Assembly (NCBI GenBank): GCA_963678065.2
Contig: CAXXVZ010000005.1
Location: forward strand, 384,001-448,000
Source: Treponemataceae bacterium
GTDB taxonomy: Bacteria > Spirochaetota > Spirochaetia > Treponematales > Rectinemataceae
Length of the DNA stretch: 64,000 bases
Direction of reading: 5' to 3'
Within the stretch, counting starts at the first letter, position 1. Every line of letters begins with the position of its first letter. Under the pieces are notes generated by a model. It saw only the letters and a program-made list of their open reading frames with translations, did not search any database and was not told the origin of the DNA. The position numbers were made by a program, and so were the translations under genes. Of this stretch, positions 189-7,787 are shown one piece after another.

Positions 189-1325
189 TCAGAATTCCTC
201 TCTGAACCTCTCGCAATAGTAGGCGACACAGTCCCACTCGGCGTCGGGCGGAATTCTGTGGTCGGGGCAGGGGATGTAGCCGCCCAGCTCGACGAGGGGT
301 TTCAGTCTCTCGATCTCGGCATCGACTGCCGCTCTGCCGCGCGAAAAAACCACCTTGTCCACGCCGCCGACACCGCGCAGAGACCTGCCGTAGCGCTCGC
401 GCCAGGGGGCGATCGAGGCGCGCCAGGTGCCCACTTCGATGGGGAACATCGTGTTGACTCCGTTTCCGAGCCAGGTCGGGATGAGGGAATCGATGAGGCC
501 GTCGCAGTCGAGGGAAACGATCGAAATGCCGCTCCGGGCGAGGCGCTCCGTTATGCGCGCGTACCAGGGGCCGACCAGAGCTTCGAACACGGCGGGGTTG
601 ATGAGAGGGCCGTTCTTGAAGCAGATGTCCTCCCAGAAATGCCCGAAATCGAAGGTGAGGCCGAGTCCGGCGGCCCGGTTCAGAGTTTCGTCGACGAGGG
701 AGAGCGCGAGCTGCCCCACCCTGTCGATGATCTCGCAAAAGAGTTCCTGATCGTCGACCTGCAGGTATGCGGAGTTTTCCACGCCGAGCATGTTGCGTAT
801 CTCGCCGAAAAGACTGCCGCACCAGAGACCCAAAGGTTTATCCGCGAGCTTTCCGGCGGCCTTTGCCACGGCGAGACGCGCGAGTCCCGCGCCGTCGACG
901 CGATCGGGCGACCACCTCAGTCTCGGTTCGACGAGCCTCTCCCATGAATCCCTGTCTTCGAGCGTGTAACCGACCTCGGAAGGGATGCAGACGATGCCGG
1001 GCTTCTCGATGACGATGGCGCCCGAGGAATTACGGACTTTCATGGAGCCGTCTTTCAGGGTTTCGAGCACGGTCTTCTCGAAAGGAGGAAAGAGCGCCGC
1101 GGTTCCTTCCACGCTCTGCCCCCAGCCGAAATCGAAACCGAGCGCACGCGCCACGGCATCTTCGCGGTCGCTCTGGTAATGATACCCTTCGGCGATGGCC
1201 TGTTCGATCCGTCCTTCCTGGGCCCATTTTTGCACGGTCTCGGGCCAGAATCCGAAATGCACGATGGGCACCCGGTCATACGTCCCGTAATTCAGAATCG
1301 CCAGCGCGTTTTCCCTGTCGGTCAT
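189..1325 (-). CDS. Uroporphyrinogen decarboxylase (URO-D)/MtaA-CmuA superfamily protein
   Basis: MTDRE..DRVP N-terminus, FWEDICFKNGPLINP, LDCDG, GGVDK, GGYIPCPDHRIP; RBS GAGGGGAAGGA; start overlaps the DeoR stop (ATGA). Confidence 0.8.
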   Translation of the reverse strand: MTDRENALAILNYGTYDRVPIVHFGFWPETVQKWAQEGRIEQAIAEGYHYQSDREDAVARALGFDFGWGQSVEGTAALFPPFEKTVLETLKDGSMKVRNSSGAIVIEKPGIVCIPSEVGYTLEDRDSWERLVEPRLRWSPDRVDGAGLARLAVAKAAGKLADKPLGLWCGSLFGEIRNMLGVENSAYLQVDDQELFCEIIDRVGQLALSLVDETLNRAAGLGLTFDFGHFWEDICFKNGPLINPAVFEALVGPWYARITERLARSGISIVSLDCDGLIDSLIPTWLGNGVNTMFPIEVGTWRASIAPWRERYGRSLRGVGGVDKVVFSRGRAAVDAEIERLKPLVELGGYIPCPDHRIPPDAEWDCVAYYCERFREEF

Positions 1326-2188
1326 GGGTCGTTCCTTCCCCTCGTGGATACGAGACTGGCGCCAGCCGGAGCTGTCGTGGCAGGTGTGGTCAGCACCTTG
1401 ATGCCGAGCCTGTCGAATTCGGCGATATTCTCCGGATCCATTCCTGCGTCAGTCACGACGATGGACACGGCGGAGAGGGCAGCAGTCCTGAAATTGGCGA
1501 CTCGCCCGAGCTTGCTGGAGTCCGCGACCAGAATGACTGATCCGTGCGTGTTCATGATCATGAGCCTGTTTATCCAGGATTCGGCCTGGGTCGAATTCGT
1601 GAGTCCGTACTTGATGCTGAAACCGTCGACTCCGATGACAGCCTTGTTCGCGTAGACGCCCTTGATCGCTTTCACTGCGAGCTCGCCCACGAGCGTGAAA
1701 GATTCCCGTCGGATTTCCCCGCCGGTCATGATGACATTGACGCTTTCGGAATGGACGTGAATGGGCGCGAGAGGATTGTTGGTGATGATCTTGACCCGGG
1801 GAATGTCGAGATGCTTGAGGAACTCGATCGTCGTGGAGCCCGAGTTGACGAAAACAGTGTCGCCTTCTTCGATGAGGGAGGCCGCGAGCTGGCCGATTGC
1901 CTGTTTTTCCGCCTGCTTCAGGGCGCTCTTCTGGGCGAATTGCGGCTCGAAGCCTATTCTGTCGTTGTAGATGGCTCCGCCGTGCGTCCGTTCGATGAGC
2001 CCTTTGCGCTCCAGAAGCTCCAGGTCGCGGCGGATGGTCATTTCCGTCACGCCGAGCGATTCCGCGAGCTCGGCGACACGGAGCGCGCCCTTCTGCCTTC
2101 CGAGAGCGCAGATCGCCTCCCGCCTTTGCTGAGGCGCCCGGTAGCTGCCGCCATCACCATTGGCCATCGCTGCCTCCACAGGCCCCAT
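1322..2188 (-). CDS. DeoR/GlpR-family transcriptional regulator
   Basis: HTH ELAESLGVTEMTIRRDL..RTHGGA; sensor domain EKQAIG, SGSTT, ITNN, TGGEIR, VADSSKLG, VTD; exact start uncertain. Confidence 0.95.
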   Translation of the reverse strand: MGPVEAAMANGDGGSYRAPQQRREAICALGRQKGALRVAELAESLGVTEMTIRRDLELLERKGLIERTHGGAIYNDRIGFEPQFAQKSALKQAEKQAIGQLAASLIEEGDTVFVNSGSTTIEFLKHLDIPRVKIITNNPLAPIHVHSESVNVIMTGGEIRRESFTLVGELAVKAIKGVYANKAVIGVDGFSIKYGLTNSTQAESWINRLMIMNTHGSVILVADSSKLGRVANFRTAALSAVSIVVTDAGMDPENIAEFDRLGIKVLTTPATTAPAGASLVSTRGRNDP

Positions 2189-2194
2189 GCGGCC

Positions 2195-3526
2195 TCAGTC
2201 TGGAACGTATTCGCTGAAATAGCGCGGGGAAAACACGGCGTCGACCGCCATATCGAGAACTCCGAGCTCGGAAATCAGATCCAGCACACTATATCTCGCG
2301 CGAATGAGCGACGCAATCCGCATGCTGTCGGCACAGGCCTTTCGGGAAAGCCCGATCTGGCCAGGTTCGACGGGGCAGGAGGCGTCGCGCAGCGCTCTTT
2401 TCAGCACGGCGAAGTCGGGTATCTGGCGGCGGACGCGTCCGGAAATTTCCTGCCAAAGCAGGGAGGCTGTCTGAGCCCGCCGGACAATTTCGGCTGATGG
2501 CGGGGTCTTTGCCTGGATTGTCTTTATAGCCTTCGGTTTCATGGGATTCCCGGCCGGAATGAGTTCCGCAAGTCTCATTCGGTAGCCAAGAAGGTCCCGC
2601 GAGGGCATGAAGCCCTCGCGCCGTATATGCCTGCCGATCGCCCCCTCTTCCGCGAACAGTTCCCGCATGAGGGCTGCTGCGATGAGGGTGCCGACAGCCA
2701 CCTTGAAGCCGTGGGAAATATCCTGTCCGTCTTTTTTCAGGTGGAACATTTCCCAGGTGTGCGACATGAAGTGCTCGGTGCCGGAGGCCGGACGGGAGTC
2801 ATGGTACCGCTGTATCGCGAGACCGGTGGAAATGAGCCCTTTGTACAGAATTCCTATGGACCTGCTGTCCCCCTTCTGTATTTCCGCGCCCCATGGAAGG
2901 AGGCTGACTGCCGCGGACTGGGCCAGATCCCAGGCGACGGGGTCTATCGCCTCGATTCCCATGAGATCCGCTATGAGCCAGTCCGCTCCTCCGGTCAGCT
3001 TCGCGATGATGTCGCCGTAGCCGGAAGCGATCATGGCACCGGGCGCGTGGACAATGATATCTTCGTCCGCGACTACGCACAGAGGGGGCGGACATTCCAG
3101 TGTGGTTTTGAATCCCGCGACGGTGATGGCGGCGCCGGAGGAAGAAAAGCCATCGACCGAAGGGGCGGTCGGGACACAGACATACCGCATACCGCATTCG
3201 AAAGCGGCGCGCTTGACGATGTCGTTGATGGTTCCCGAACCTACGGCTACCGGCACGGCTCCCGTCGCGGCAAGGACAGCGGCGATTCTGGCCACGAGTT
3301 GGTCACAGGCATAGGGAGGAGGGAAAGCGGGCAGGATGTGGAGGGTGGTTTCAGGCCGCCCTTCGAGGAATGCGGCGAAGCGCGAGGCCGCGACCTTCCA
3401 TATTGTCCCGTCAGTCACGATGATAAAGGGTCCCGGGCCGAAAAAGGGTTCGATGATTGTATGCAGGCGGTCAAGGATGCCCGGACCGTAGAGATTGATC
3501 GCTGTATCCGTCCCGGGAAAATTCAT
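2195..3526 (-). CDS. egsA: sn-glycerol-1-phosphate dehydrogenase (AraM/EgsA-type)
   Basis: GSGTINDIVK, PTAPSVDGFSS, ASGYGDIIAK, SRPASGTEHFMSH and HGFKV metal/NAD motifs; start placed at MNFPG because the upstream extension lies in the promoter region. Confidence 0.9.
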   Translation of the reverse strand: MNFPGTDTAINLYGPGILDRLHTIIEPFFGPGPFIIVTDGTIWKVAASRFAAFLEGRPETTLHILPAFPPPYACDQLVARIAAVLAATGAVPVAVGSGTINDIVKRAAFECGMRYVCVPTAPSVDGFSSSGAAITVAGFKTTLECPPPLCVVADEDIIVHAPGAMIASGYGDIIAKLTGGADWLIADLMGIEAIDPVAWDLAQSAAVSLLPWGAEIQKGDSRSIGILYKGLISTGLAIQRYHDSRPASGTEHFMSHTWEMFHLKKDGQDISHGFKVAVGTLIAAALMRELFAEEGAIGRHIRREGFMPSRDLLGYRMRLAELIPAGNPMKPKAIKTIQAKTPPSAEIVRRAQTASLLWQEISGRVRRQIPDFAVLKRALRDASCPVEPGQIGLSRKACADSMRIASLIRARYSVLDLISELGVLDMAVDAVFSPRYFSEYVPD

Positions 3527-3559
3527 GTTTGAATGTTCGATTTTGCTGTTCACGGAAGC

Positions 3560-3589
3560 ATTATATTCAGTGTATGTTCGAATAGTCAA
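3560..3589 (-). promoter_or_regulatory. sigma70-type promoter for the egsA-deoR-uroD operon
   Basis: Minus strand TTGACT (3589-3584), 18 bp, TATAAT (3565-3560). Confidence 0.65.
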
Positions 3590-3593
3590 CATA
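3573..3593. promoter_or_regulatory. Putative DeoR/GlpR operator
   Basis: TATGTT-CGAATAGTC-AACATA palindrome resembling the GlpR half-site WATGTTCG; further half-sites near 3532 (AATGTTCG) and 3619-3632 (AACATAAATATGTT). Confidence 0.6.
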
Positions 3594-3631
3594 GATAACA
3601 ATATTAAGATCGTTTTCTAACATAAATATGT

Positions 3632-3659
3632 TTGACAAATTGCGAATCAGTAGTATGAT
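3632..3659 (+). promoter_or_regulatory. sigma70-type promoter for the ABC-GDPD operon
   Basis: TTGACA (3632-3637), 16 bp, TATGAT (3654-3659); RBS AAGGAGG before ATG 3698. Confidence 0.7.
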
Positions 3660-3697
3660 GACCTTGAAAACATTCATGGCTCAAGGAGGCTGATCGT

Positions 3698-4933
3698 ATG
3701 AAGAAGATTGGATTCGCATGCGTGCTGCTGATTTTGGCGGGCACTCTGTTCGCGCAAAGTCCGGTGAAAGTGTCATTTTGGTACTCGGTGGGCGGCTCCG
3801 TGAGGGACGCAGTCGAAGCCAACATCAAGGAGTACAACGCTTCGCAGAGCAAGTACCAGATCGAAGGCGTCTTCGCGGGGAACTACGAGGAATCCCTGCA
3901 GAAAATCGTCTCGGCCATAGCGACCGGCAACGCTCCGGTGCTCATCCAGCAGGCGCATGTCTACGCGCCGCAGCTTATCGACGCGAATGCCCTGGAATCC
4001 CTCGATTCCTACATCGCGAAAGACAAATCCTTCCAGCGCGACCAGTTCTTCGAGCCCCTGTTCCAGTCCAATGTCTTCAAAGGAACGACCTACGGAATAG
4101 CCTTCAACTGCTCGACGCCGATCATGTACTACAACAAGGATATGTTCCGCAAGGCTGGCCTGAATCCCGACAAATTCCCCGCGACCTGGCAGGAACTCGC
4201 CGACGCCGCGAAGAAAATCAACGCGCTCGGAAAAGATACGAACGGCTTCATTCTGAGCTACGGTTCGGGATGGATCCTCCTGGGATTGACCTGGGAGCAG
4301 GGCGCCGACTGGCTGGCCAAGGACAATTCAAAGGTTCTCTGGAATGAGAAGGCCCATGTCGACGCCATATCCTTCTACAAGAAAATGGTCGATCAGAAGA
4401 CGGCGCTGTACAAGGGCGGCGAACCCGACTTCATGAGCGGCAAGGCCGCCATCATGATGGAATCGACAGCCTCCCTCACCCGGTTCAAGTCGACGGTTAC
4501 CTTCGATCTCGGCACGGCCGAGTTCCCGGCGGGGACCCGCAAGGCCGTTCCGCTCGGCGGCGGCAGCCTCTATGTCTTCAAGCGCAACGCGCAGAACCTG
4601 AAAGACGGCGCCTGGGACTTCATCAAGTTCATGACGAACAAGGAAACGCAGATGAAGTGGGCGGAGGCCACCGGTTACCTTGTCGTGCGGAAGGATGCCA
4701 AGGAAGCTCTGGACAAAGAAGGCTTCCTGCAGAAAGACAAGCGCTACAACACGACCTATCTCCAGCTGCCCAGTATCCGGCCGGAAAACGAGACCGCCTA
4801 TCCGTATTACATCAACCTGAGGAGCATCTACAACGACGCCTGGGACAAGATCATGATGCAGGGCGCCGATATCCAGACAACGATGGATGAGGCGACGAAA
4901 AAAGCAAACGCGGTCATCAAAGAAAACAAGTAG
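3698..4933 (+). CDS. ABC transporter substrate-binding protein, UgpB-like (CUT1 family)
   Basis: Signal peptide; VSFWYSVGG, YNASQSKY, GNYEE, FNCSTPIMYYNKDMF, PATWQEL, GGGSLYV, WAEATGYL. Confidence 0.9.
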   Translation: MKKIGFACVLLILAGTLFAQSPVKVSFWYSVGGSVRDAVEANIKEYNASQSKYQIEGVFAGNYEESLQKIVSAIATGNAPVLIQQAHVYAPQLIDANALESLDSYIAKDKSFQRDQFFEPLFQSNVFKGTTYGIAFNCSTPIMYYNKDMFRKAGLNPDKFPATWQELADAAKKINALGKDTNGFILSYGSGWILLGLTWEQGADWLAKDNSKVLWNEKAHVDAISFYKKMVDQKTALYKGGEPDFMSGKAAIMMESTASLTRFKSTVTFDLGTAEFPAGTRKAVPLGGGSLYVFKRNAQNLKDGAWDFIKFMTNKETQMKWAEATGYLVVRKDAKEALDKEGFLQKDKRYNTTYLQLPSIRPENETAYPYYINLRSIYNDAWDKIMMQGADIQTTMDEATKKANAVIKENK

Positions 4934-4950
4934 CGCCAGCGCTCGGAAGA

Positions 4951-4980
4951 AGCCAGCCGGACAACACTGCCCGGCTGGTT
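4951..4980 (+). terminator. Stem-loop after the substrate-binding gene (mRNA stabiliser or partial terminator)
   Basis: AGCCAGCCGG-N10-CCGGCTGGTT. Confidence 0.5.
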
Positions 4981-5051
4981 TCATATGCTGGCGCCGGATT
5001 ATCCTTGAGATCCGGTCGATCCGATCTTCACATCGCGTTTGAGAGGCATAC

Positions 5052-5957
5052 ATGGGAATTCAGAACAATAGGGGAAAAAGAACATTCCTGTTTTTTTCAC
5101 TCGCTCCCACCATTGTGTTGATGTTCGTGTTCAGCTACTTCAGCCTTTTCTATTCCTTCGGCGTATCCTTCCTGAAGTGGAACATGCTGGGCACCCCGAA
5201 ATGGATAGGGCTCAGGAACTATACCCAGATGTTCACGAATCCCGACTTCTGGAATTCGCTCAAGGTCACCGCCGTATACGCACTCTGGAGCGTGCCGCTC
5301 TGCCTCATTTTCGGGCTTCTCGTGGGGATGGTCCTGAAAGGCGCCTCGCTGGGGCGGTCCTTTTTCCGCGTCATGTTTTTCATTCCCGTCATCATTTCCA
5401 TGGTTGTGGCCTCGCTCATCTGGCGCTGGATTTTCAACCCTGGCCTCGGGATACTCAACACCTTCATTTACAGCACCGGCCTTGCGGATTCGGCTTCCCC
5501 GCCCCACTGGATGCAGTGGGTTCTCGACCCGAGCGGCGGCTCGATGGCCGCGCTCCTTATCGTCGGCATCTGGAAACGGATCGGCTACAACGGGGTAATC
5601 TTCCTGGCCGGGCTCCTCAACATTCCGGGCGAATACTACGAGGCCGCGACGCTGGAGGGGGCGTCAGCCCTCACGAAATTCCGCTACATCACCCTTCCCG
5701 TCCTGTCGCCGACAACATTTTTCGTGCTGATCATCCAGCTGATATCCTCGATCAAGGTTTCCGTCTCCCCCCTCGTCCTGACGAACGGAGGGCCGGTCGA
5801 CAGCACGAAAACGCTCGTCCTCTATATTTACAAAGAAGCTTTCGAAAACTTCCGCATGGGGTACGCTTCCGCAGTCGCGGTGTTCGTATTCCTCCTGATC
5901 CTGGCATTCACCGGCATCCAGATGCGATTCGGGGAAAAGAAGGTACACTACCAATGA
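5052..5957 (+). CDS. Carbohydrate ABC permease, UgpA/MalF-like
   Basis: WIGLRNY, multiple TM segments, EAA loop YYEAATLEGAS, MGYASA. Confidence 0.92.
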   Translation: MGIQNNRGKRTFLFFSLAPTIVLMFVFSYFSLFYSFGVSFLKWNMLGTPKWIGLRNYTQMFTNPDFWNSLKVTAVYALWSVPLCLIFGLLVGMVLKGASLGRSFFRVMFFIPVIISMVVASLIWRWIFNPGLGILNTFIYSTGLADSASPPHWMQWVLDPSGGSMAALLIVGIWKRIGYNGVIFLAGLLNIPGEYYEAATLEGASALTKFRYITLPVLSPTTFFVLIIQLISSIKVSVSPLVLTNGGPVDSTKTLVLYIYKEAFENFRMGYASAVAVFVFLLILAFTGIQMRFGEKKVHYQ

Positions 5958-6808
5958 AAGCGCCGACACCGATCAGAAATAAAACCAGGAAATTCCCGAA
6001 ACCGCTGGCGATGGCCGGATATGCCCTCCTCTTTTTCGTGGTCATCCTGTACGACTATCCCATCATCTGGATGATCATCACCGGATTCAAGGACAGCAGC
6101 GAGGTGTACACCTTCCCTCCCAGAATATTCCCCTCGCATCTGTCGTTCGACACCTTCGTGCAGGCGTGGAAGGCGACGCCGTGGATGCGCTACCTGGCCA
6201 ATACGCTTTTCGTGGCGACCATGATACCGCTTCTCAAGATCGTCCTTTCGGCCTTTGCCGGCTATGCCCTGACCTTCAGGTTCAAGGGATCGAATCTCAT
6301 ATTCCTCGCGATACTCGGCACCATGATGATTCCCGAAGAGACGACGCTGGTCGCAAAATATCTTGTCGTCAGCCGCCTCGGCTGGATCAACACCTATCTG
6401 GCTCTCATCGTGCCCGGGATGGTGGGCGCTTTTTCCATATTCATGTTCCGCCAGTATTTTCTGACGGTCCCGAAAGAGCTACAGGACGCGGCCGCGGTGG
6501 ATGGCTGCGGCCATTTCCGCTACATGCTGTCGATAGGGCTTCCACTTTCCAAATCGGTTGCGCTCACCGTGGGACTTCTCTCGTTCATCGACGAGTGGAA
6601 CTCGACGCTCTGGCCCCTCATCGTCATCAACAACGACAAAATGCGTCTGATGCAGATAGCGCTGAAGGCATTTTCCGATGACCGCGGCACGACCTGGAAT
6701 CAGCTGATGGCCGGCTGCTGCTTCGTCACCCTGCCCGTGCTGATTCTCTTCATGTTCGTGCAGAGGCAGTTCATCGAAGGCGTGGCGACCTCGGGCATCA
6801 AGGGCTGA
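5954..6808 (+). CDS. Carbohydrate ABC permease, UgpE/MalG-like
   Basis: ATG 5954 overlaps the upstream stop; VPKELQDAAAVDG EAA loop; QRQFIEGVATSGIKG C-terminus. Confidence 0.92.
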   Translation: MKAPTPIRNKTRKFPKPLAMAGYALLFFVVILYDYPIIWMIITGFKDSSEVYTFPPRIFPSHLSFDTFVQAWKATPWMRYLANTLFVATMIPLLKIVLSAFAGYALTFRFKGSNLIFLAILGTMMIPEETTLVAKYLVVSRLGWINTYLALIVPGMVGAFSIFMFRQYFLTVPKELQDAAAVDGCGHFRYMLSIGLPLSKSVALTVGLLSFIDEWNSTLWPLIVINNDKMRLMQIALKAFSDDRGTTWNQLMAGCCFVTLPVLILFMFVQRQFIEGVATSGIKG

Positions 6809-6869
6809 TGCGCCCGGCATCGCCTCGATCCGTCGCGACAATCCATGACGGCAATCACGGAGGAACACA

Positions 6870-7787
6870 GTGATACATGAAGGGATGCGCGGGATAGGCG
6901 GCGCGGTATTTTTCCAGGCTCACCGCGGTGGCGGCGGATTCGAGCGGCCCGACAACACGCTCACCGCGTGCAGATACGGCTGGGGCCTGGGCGGAATCGC
7001 GGAGCTGGATGTCCGCAAGACTCTCGACAAGCGGATAGTCTGCCTCCACGACCCGACCCTCAGGCGAACGACGGACGCGCCCGCCGCGATCGCGGACCTC
7101 CCCGTAAACGAACTTCCCTACGAGGCCTTCAGGCATCTCGACGCGGGGCGCTACTTCGGGCCGGAGTATGCCGGCGAACGTGTGCCGCTTCTCTCCGATG
7201 TCTTCGAAATAATGGCGAAGGATCCCTCCCTCTACGCCTATCTCGACTTGAAAGAGAGCGGACTCGCGGACATCACGGAGCTGATCGGAGAATATGGCCT
7301 CCAGGGCCGGACCATCGTGGCGGGCCCGGACCGGGGCTGGCTCGCCGACATCAAGCGCTCGCTTCCGCAGGTCTGCACACTGCACTGGCTCGGCAGAAGC
7401 GGAGCGGAAATCGAGTGTCAGTTCCGGGCCGACGCAGCGCGGGAATTCGCCGGATTGGACCAGATTCAGATCCATCTCAACGACGATCCCGACCGCGCAG
7501 GAGGCTGGCGCTATACAGCCAAGAAGGGATTCCTCGAAGAGGCCCTGGCCCTGTGCAAAGAGGCAAAGATCGATCTCGAGGTCTTCCCTTGGCACTTCGA
7601 AAAGAGCGATATCGACGATCTTCTCGGGATAGGACTGCGCTGGTACGCCACCGATGAACCCTCGCGCTTTCACGGCTATGTTTCGGAATGGCTCTCGCCG
7701 CCTTGTATCACTTCTTGGCGGCGGGAACTGGAGTCTTCGCAGGAGGCGCCTCGATGGACAGAAGGTCGACCTCGAAGACGAGGGTAG
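6870..7787 (+). CDS. Glycerophosphodiester phosphodiesterase (cytoplasmic, UgpQ-like)
   Basis: AHRGG, PDNTL, ELDV, CLHDPTLRRTT, LDAG, VPLLSDV, ATDEP; no signal peptide; 3' end overlaps the FKBP gene. Confidence 0.88.
   Translation: MIHEGMRGIGGAVFFQAHRGGGGFERPDNTLTACRYGWGLGGIAELDVRKTLDKRIVCLHDPTLRRTTDAPAAIADLPVNELPYEAFRHLDAGRYFGPEYAGERVPLLSDVFEIMAKDPSLYAYLDLKESGLADITELIGEYGLQGRTIVAGPDRGWLADIKRSLPQVCTLHWLGRSGAEIECQFRADAAREFAGLDQIQIHLNDDPDRAGGWRYTAKKGFLEEALALCKEAKIDLEVFPWHFEKSDIDDLLGIGLRWYATDEPSRFHGYVSEWLSPPCITSWRRELESSQEAPRWTEGRPRRRG

Follow-up and report, generated by a model that had tools for sequence, protein, structure and literature searches.

A conserved divergent locus of a Treponemataceae bacterium as a candidate catabolic unit for sn-glycerol-1-phosphate

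To characterize a divergent gene cluster in a 64,000-nucleotide stretch of Treponemataceae bacterium DNA (the window), the seven genes between positions 189 and 7787 were analyzed together with their relatives in other genomes. The leftward unit contains an araM/egsA-like dehydrogenase gene, deoR and a UroD-like gene, and the rightward unit (3698-7787) ugpB-, ugpA- and ugpE-like genes followed by a gene for a glycerophosphodiester phosphodiesterase (GDPD); this arrangement, described earlier in a first-pass annotation, was confirmed (Table 1). We consider it fairly probable that the locus is a catabolic unit for sn-glycerol-1-phosphate (G1P), in which sn-1-glycerophosphodiesters are imported, hydrolysed to G1P and oxidised to dihydroxyacetone phosphate (DHAP). 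In such a pathway the UgpB-type ABC importer, whose predicted substrates are G1P or diesters of it and which a stand-alone ATPase encoded at C3:227597 may serve, would supply the atypical GDPD. This GDPD is predicted to cleave sn-1-glycerophosphodiesters rejected by ordinary GlpQ, releasing an alcohol along with G1P, which the AraM-type enzyme would convert to DHAP with NAD(P)+. DHAP would enter glycolysis through the single triosephosphate isomerase (TIM), and the unit is likely to be controlled by the DeoR-family regulator. Since no isomerase, epimerase or aldolase gene was found in the window, DHAP would be the one product for which no further gene is needed.

The system is real and conserved, and it would work like the ugp and glp systems yet fails the UgpB, UgpQ/GlpQ and EgsA equivalog tests. 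All NCBIfam scores were under the equivalog cut-offs (171 against 413 bits for EgsA, 166 against 411 for UgpB and 64 against 264 for UgpQ), those for UgpA and UgpE included. No ABC ATPase gene (ugpC) is present at the locus, so it is not a complete ugpBAECQ operon; the gene at C3:227597 is a stand-alone UgpC/MsmK-like gene whose score exceeds the cut-off.

The GDPD is the most telling part of the locus. Its model is a confident TIM barrel, and the catalytic His-Arg, Glu-x-Asp and second His are present. Strict sn-3 specificity is reported for GlpQ and its orthologues, and GlpQ is unable to cleave lipoteichoic acid (LTA) (PMC7086022). In the GlpQ pocket Ca2+ (E70, D72, E152) and Q188 hold the hydroxyls, and the enzyme is sn-3 specific because an sn-1 hydroxyl would hit a hydrophobic wall formed by F190, Y259 and F279 (PMC7086022). 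GlpQ positions were mapped by hidden Markov model (HMM) alignment onto 119 homologues (120 listed minus the protein of the window), including members of Paenibacillus, Cohnella and Victivallales. The catalytic and phosphate residues were kept (H43, E70, D72 and H85 in 119/119, R44 in 118/119). On the other hand, none of the 119 homologues keeps any of Glu152, Gln188, Phe190 and Phe279: E152 is replaced by Asp and Q188 by Ala, Cys, Thr or Ser in all of them, Phe is found in 0/119 at positions 190 and 279, the Y259 position mostly holds Trp or Phe, and W168, Q195 and H197 are present without exception, unlike in GlpQ. The changed residues are those reported to set chirality, a pattern that fits an inverted pocket and also a larger polyol. 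The AraM-adjacent GDPDs of spirochaetes, Opitutaceae, Planctomycetota and one Cytophagia genome form a single clade (support 1.00) that does not include the ordinary GDPDs encoded in the window genome. The GDPD of the window is about 25 residues longer than its orthologues (window 7708-7787), with the tail modelled at low confidence, and the 3' end of its gene overlaps a convergent FKBP-type isomerase gene by 80 bases.

A search for conserved neighbourhoods, as proposed in the first-pass annotation, found araM together with GDPD, transporter and regulator genes, the transporters being of two unrelated types. The named relatives of the locus proteins are spirochaetes, and the deoR-araM/ugpBAE-GDPD layout occurs in other spirochaete genera as well. 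Among nine related spirochaete loci (duplicates L048 and L133 excluded), ugpBAE and GDPD are divergent from araM-deoR in seven, the remaining two ending at contig ends; a type II sn-glycerol-3-phosphate (G3P) oxidase-like gene (GlpA/GlpD-type) is present in five and a HAD hydrolase gene in three. The relatives were found by an alignment-based scan, a single-sequence scan of genome contigs having given none, and genes in the fetched loci were predicted with a simple caller that missed some, such as AraM in L217, L233 and L248. The GDPD clade was detected in 5/68 other genomes of the family; the distribution of the system is patchy, because the clade was found neither in 400 other sampled Spirochaetota genomes nor in plasmids. 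When loci were instead centred on AraM, 17/160 contained this GDPD clade (two pairs being duplicates, and most of the 17 having contributed to the GDPD profile) and four more an ordinary GDPD.

In Opitutaceae the GDPD clade was present in 18/251 genomes, and AraM was found in 18/18 of these against 13/233 of the others. AraM adjoined the GDPD in 17 of the 20 fetched loci, as checked by tblastn, only one of the 20 (L214) having been in the GDPD profile. These 17 loci contained a GlpT-like antiporter (12 loci), GlpD (nine) and RpiB (one), and none had an FGGY kinase; by eye, many Opitutaceae GDPDs of the clade have a signal-peptide-like N-terminus. In addition, L205 combines AraM and GlpT-like genes with a GlpA/D-like gene, GlpB (over its cut-off) and a CCG-domain gene. 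These results indicate that the gene association exceeds chance.

The first-pass annotation had described a G1P dehydrogenase present instead of a G3P dehydrogenase. A GlpA/GlpD-type enzyme, however, is encoded in 5/9 of the spirochaete and 9/17 of the Opitutaceae loci. In the window genome, a 69% paralogue of the dehydrogenase (G000:C2:38700-44300; L001:6673-12258) lies beside, and is transcribed away from, a pair of genes resembling a type II G3P oxidase. The "instead of" is therefore wrong at the level of the system, and since the loci of relatives also include a G3P dehydrogenase, DHAP would be formed from both enantiomers. A HAD hydrolase gene and a luxS-like gene follow the paralogue, a portion of the relatives' locus that is absent from the window.

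The assignment of the dehydrogenase to the AraM/EgsA type was upheld. Its top PDB match by sequence is B. subtilis AraM (9H4X, E 1.5e-40), which is also the top match by fold, ahead of archaeal EgsA and glycerol dehydrogenases (model pLDDT 94, TM 0.72/0.81), with 26% identity in the structural alignment. Residues D126, D173, H253, H257 and H273 and the S245-R-P motif (P0001 numbering), which we take to be the metal and substrate motifs of the AraM family, aligned with 9H4X and did not vary among 36 close homologues. A tree built from 144 homologues (each longer than 330 aa and taken from a locus with four or more called genes) placed the dehydrogenase in a clade of spirochaete proteins (support 1.00), most of whose deep branches occur with deoR, ugpB and GDPD. 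From these sequence features the protein is likely to be a G1P dehydrogenase.

Phaeobacter sp. MED193 grows on G1P, its G1P/G3P transporters are UgpB and GpxB, and its UgpB binds G1P and G3P within three-fold (PMC12718374). Seven of the nine UgpB ligand residues listed in that paper (PDB 9LFF) are kept in the binding protein of the window: all four phosphate contacts (Y63, S139, S256 and Y327) and, among the glycerol contacts and Trp clamp, G288, R375 and W192. Glu88 of UgpB, a glycerol-hydroxyl contact, corresponds to His87 here and in all 11 spirochaete rows of the same type, and the first clamp Trp (Trp188) to Tyr188 or Gly189, depending on an alignment gap. As a canonical UgpB is encoded elsewhere in the genome (470 bits to 4AQ4), the UgpB-like protein of the window would be a specialised paralogue. 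The importer is not the novel part of the system, since G1P uptake by an ordinary UgpB is already published (PMC12718374). A further Ugp-like importer is encoded at L003:4301-10176 (G000:C4) alongside an ordinary GDPD and a SorC regulator. Divergent from them lies a gene for a GpsA-like NAD dehydrogenase, whose cluster also includes genes neighbouring actinobacterial AraM; this locus is possibly an opposite-enantiomer counterpart.

Several points weigh against G1P catabolism. NAD-linked oxidation of glycerol phosphate is uphill by about +25 kJ/mol; it would have to be pulled by glycolysis or by re-oxidation of NADH, and a pairing of GpsA with the flavin G3P dehydrogenase could supply this pull. 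The AraM motifs do not separate glycerol-linked clades from those linked to FGGY, RpiB or phosphotransferase system (PTS) genes, so that sequence alone cannot fix the substrate of the dehydrogenase. The closest dehydrogenases (56-65%; L046, L047, L126, L128-L130) lie beside a PhnS-like ABC importer and have no GDPD; in these loci deoR is kept, and the importer and a HAD-like gene stand in place of ugpBAE-GDPD. Related spirochaete loci contain RpiB in 3/9 cases and an FGGY (ribulokinase-like) kinase in 1/9; the RpiB of L131 matches DerI at 172 bits, a higher score than with the RpiB equivalog models yet under the cut-off, and L113, with the same type of binding protein, adds Zn-ADH, DhaK/L and RpiB. 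The pocket comparison is a sequence alignment, in which the C-terminal positions lie on a weak HMM segment. Finally, AraM has been characterised as a G1P-forming enzyme, acting for an ether lipid of unknown function (PMC5059525, PMC13400652).

The linkage of AraM and GDPD also varies between groups. The clade occurs in 5/351 Planctomycetota genomes, with AraM adjacent in one of four fetched loci. In Lentisphaeria it is present in 38/251 genomes, whereas AraM was called in 0/20 fetched loci and was adjacent in 1/38 by coordinates, these figures coming from gene calls and coordinates, unlike the tblastn-checked Opitutaceae. As kin are not independent, the co-occurrence counts are descriptions and not tests, and the linkages that are truly independent number about three to five. 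In the GDPD-bearing Lentisphaeria genomes AraM was found elsewhere in 34/38, against 91/213 of the others. AraM-like genes occurred in 125/251 genomes of this sample, mostly without a conserved neighbourhood.

The main rival, itself unlikely, is degradation of a longer polyol phosphate, or of a diester of one, such as a tetritol or pentitol phosphate from, for example, ribitol or erythritol teichoic acids. The exchange of bulky GDPD pocket residues for small ones, which would widen the pocket, and the change to His87 fit a larger polyol, and RpiB/DerI-like genes occur in three of the nine related loci, in L056 and in L113, and an FGGY kinase gene in L206/L030. Actinobacterial AraM-like genes are found beside FGGY kinase, GpsA-like, GlpD and RpiB genes or beside a sorbitol-type PTS (L057, L065, L073, L078, L083, L106, L108, L119; L092, L098, L109), and these loci are candidates for an undescribed polyol-phosphate pathway. 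Likewise, Opitutaceae AraM paralogues in L253, L255 and L256 are accompanied by ordinary GDPDs, GlpT-like transporters and AraD or SDR plus a transaldolase-like gene (the latter by eye), gene sets which suggest longer polyol-phosphate substrates. However, catabolism of erythrulose-1-phosphate requires a second TIM, and the genome has one TIM-family gene and a best RpiB match of 47%; no RpiB-like or second TIM-like isomerase for a tetritol pathway was found at the locus, and the window has no kinase. Moreover, RpiB is present in 1/17 and an FGGY kinase in 0/17 of the Opitutaceae loci, and the extra genes found in some loci (RpiB, FGGY, UroD-like) may instead process the alcohol released by the GDPD.

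It is less probable still that free G1P, or racemic glycerol phosphate, is the compound taken up and that the GDPD either lacks sn-1 selectivity or cleaves some different diester, glycerol 1,2-cyclic phosphate for example. Such uptake would fit the Opitutaceae AraM loci that lack this GDPD (14 loci, each with a GlpT-like antiporter and a HAD phosphatase), the unlinked GDPD of Lentisphaeria and the co-occurring G3P dehydrogenases; against it, the Opitutaceae clade GDPDs are found almost only in AraM-bearing genomes (18/18), and the clade is altered at the very positions to which sn-3 specificity has been ascribed. Phosphate scavenging, in which the GDPD and a HAD phosphatase would free phosphate and glycerol with the dehydrogenase as a side branch, is very improbable: HAD phosphatases are common neighbours and PhoD occurs in L079, but the window has no HAD gene and the regulators are of the DeoR or SorC sugar-phosphate type, as expected for carbon catabolism. 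Hardly any weight can be given to a biosynthetic dehydrogenase, one that would supply heterochiral or archaeal-type lipids with G1P in the way suggested for AraM and PcrB in B. subtilis, although it would agree with the characterised direction of AraM/EgsA (PMC5059525, PMC13400652) and PlsY/PlsC accept both enantiomers (PMC13400652), because no PcrB/GGGPS match was found in the 99.94% complete genome (controls positive) and the neighbours are importers and hydrolases; biosynthetic use was rejected.

G1P units occur in LTA, phosphatidylglycerol and archaeal lipids (PMC7086022). Nothing points to archaea as the source; LTA, phosphatidylglycerol head groups and archaeal lipids are all candidates, and none is singled out. 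Close strains were detected in groundwater and sludge sequencing runs with all 30 bins covered, and two metatranscriptome runs gave short scattered pieces in 8/30 and 11/30 bins.

The control region measures 171 bp if araM starts at the ATG at 3526 and 144 bp if it starts at the in-frame GTG at 3553, which is the likelier start. Two sigma-70-like promoters face outward in this gap with 11/12 matches each; as the 8 kb contained two such matches against a shuffle mean of 2.5, their position alone is informative. The leftward promoter ends six bases before GTG 3553 (-10 hexamer in window 3553-3565), and by eye the same spacing of 6-7 bases was seen in 9/13 upstream regions of relatives, for which reason the araM-deoR mRNA is likely to be leaderless. 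Three similar half-sites overlap both promoters; of the 231 half-sites in the genome (5.27 Mb) no others form a cluster of this kind, and a count of three was reached in 0/20000 shuffles of the region. These statistics are post hoc, the pattern having been picked after viewing the control region. The three half-sites are weak candidates for DeoR operators, no published source for a GlpR operator consensus having been found. Orthologues of deoR with 63-79% identity are present in 8/9 related spirochaete loci.

The UroD-like gene, which the first-pass annotation counted as part of the system, appears to be a local addition and was rejected as a core component: it is present in 0/9 related loci, and its 55% homologues in 3/68 family genomes are located at other sites. 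Its start overlaps the deoR stop by four bases. The nearest homologues (54-56%; L235-L237) directly follow a gene resembling a GH1 beta-glucosidase, and the window genome has about a dozen more distant matches.

Table 1. Genes and putative regulatory sites of the locus (window positions; a dot marks features given without a strand)
Feature	Position	Strand	Basis or remark
UroD/MetE-like protein, 378 aa	189-1325	-	Atlas URO-D clusters 0.95-0.97; no Pfam/NCBIfam match
DeoR/GlpR-family transcriptional regulator	1322-2188	-	PF08220 and PF00455
AraM/EgsA-type NAD(P)-dependent polyol-phosphate dehydrogenase, likely G1P dehydrogenase	2195-3553	-	9H4X best match by sequence and fold; likely GTG start 3553, 452 aa
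Candidate DeoR operators, three like half-sites	3532-3634	.	3532-3539, 3573-3580, 3627-3634; overlap both promoters
Promoter-like site, araM-deoR direction	3560-3589	-	sigma-70-like
Promoter-like site, ugpBAE-GDPD operon	3632-3659	+	sigma-70-like
UgpB-like CUT1 solute-binding protein	3698-4933	+	best PDB match E. coli UgpB, E 7e-40
UgpA-like permease	5052-5957	+	NF007852 best match, 126 bits
UgpE-like permease	5954-6808	+	NF008210 best match, 142 bits; 4-base overlap with ugpA
Cytoplasmic GDPD-fold phosphodiesterase	6870-7787	+	PF03009; start 6870 (GTG) or 6885 (ATG)

In listings and abstract beginnings of the literature (subscription papers and supplements being outside the scope), no description of a catabolic araM-GDPD locus or of an sn-1-specific GDPD was found, look-ups with the GDPD sequence likewise gave nothing, and the examined portions of PMC12718374 name no catabolic enzyme for G1P. 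The locus thus offers candidate enzymes for two missing steps, the cleavage of sn-1 diesters and the catabolism of G1P. If this is correct, it would supply a missing step in the recycling of bacterial wall polymers, lipid head groups and archaeal lipids, and the sn-1-specific phosphodiesterase would be a tool for LTA and lipid stereochemistry. We propose more tentatively, as an idea falling somewhat short of probable, that these loci are a mirror image of glp/ugp, with a catabolic AraM and the first sn-1-specific glycerophosphodiesterase family, which could remove G1P from LTA, phosphatidylglycerol head groups and archaeal lipid residues. Such loci would have been built independently, on Ugp-type importers in spirochaetes and, in Verrucomicrobia, Bacteroidota and others, on antiporters of the GlpT type, and most bacterial AraM enzymes would be nutritional and not lipid-biosynthetic. 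The locus cautions against taking bacterial araM genes as signs of archaeal-type lipid synthesis.

Compared with the ugpBAECQ operon and the glpTQ/glp regulon of E. coli, of which the proposed pathway would be the mirror image, the spirochaete form resembles ugpBAECQ in its CUT1 importer with a UgpB-like pocket and its cytoplasmic GDPD, and the Opitutaceae form resembles glpTQ in its GlpT-like antiporter and its GDPD with a signal-peptide-like N-terminus. The DeoR-family regulator, and in relatives the G3P dehydrogenase, recall the glp regulon. Unlike in E. coli, the unit includes an AraM-type dehydrogenase and a remodelled GDPD pocket and has no ATPase gene. The dehydrogenase shares fold and metal and substrate motifs with B. 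subtilis AraM (9H4X) and archaeal EgsA; it differs in its context of glycerophosphodiester catabolism, in contrast to the ara operon or lipid synthesis, and in the absence of PcrB from the genome. Some related loci share a GlpD-like dehydrogenase, an RpiB-like isomerase and FGGY or DhaK kinases with the erythritol and threitol pathways (EryABC-H-I and EltD-DerK-DerI), whereas the window and most Opitutaceae loci have no kinase, RpiB or second TIM; to our knowledge the known erythritol and threitol pathways contain neither a phosphodiesterase nor AraM. The binding protein is of the same type as Phaeobacter UgpB, with seven of its nine ligand residues, but has His for Glu88 and Tyr or Gly for Trp188 (PMC12718374). 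Finally, the GDPD has the fold and the H43, R44, E70, D72 and H85 residues of B. subtilis GlpQ (PDB 5T9B/5T9C; PMC7086022), from which it differs in Asp for E152, a small residue for Q188, the loss of F190 and F279, and the new invariant Trp, Gln and His.

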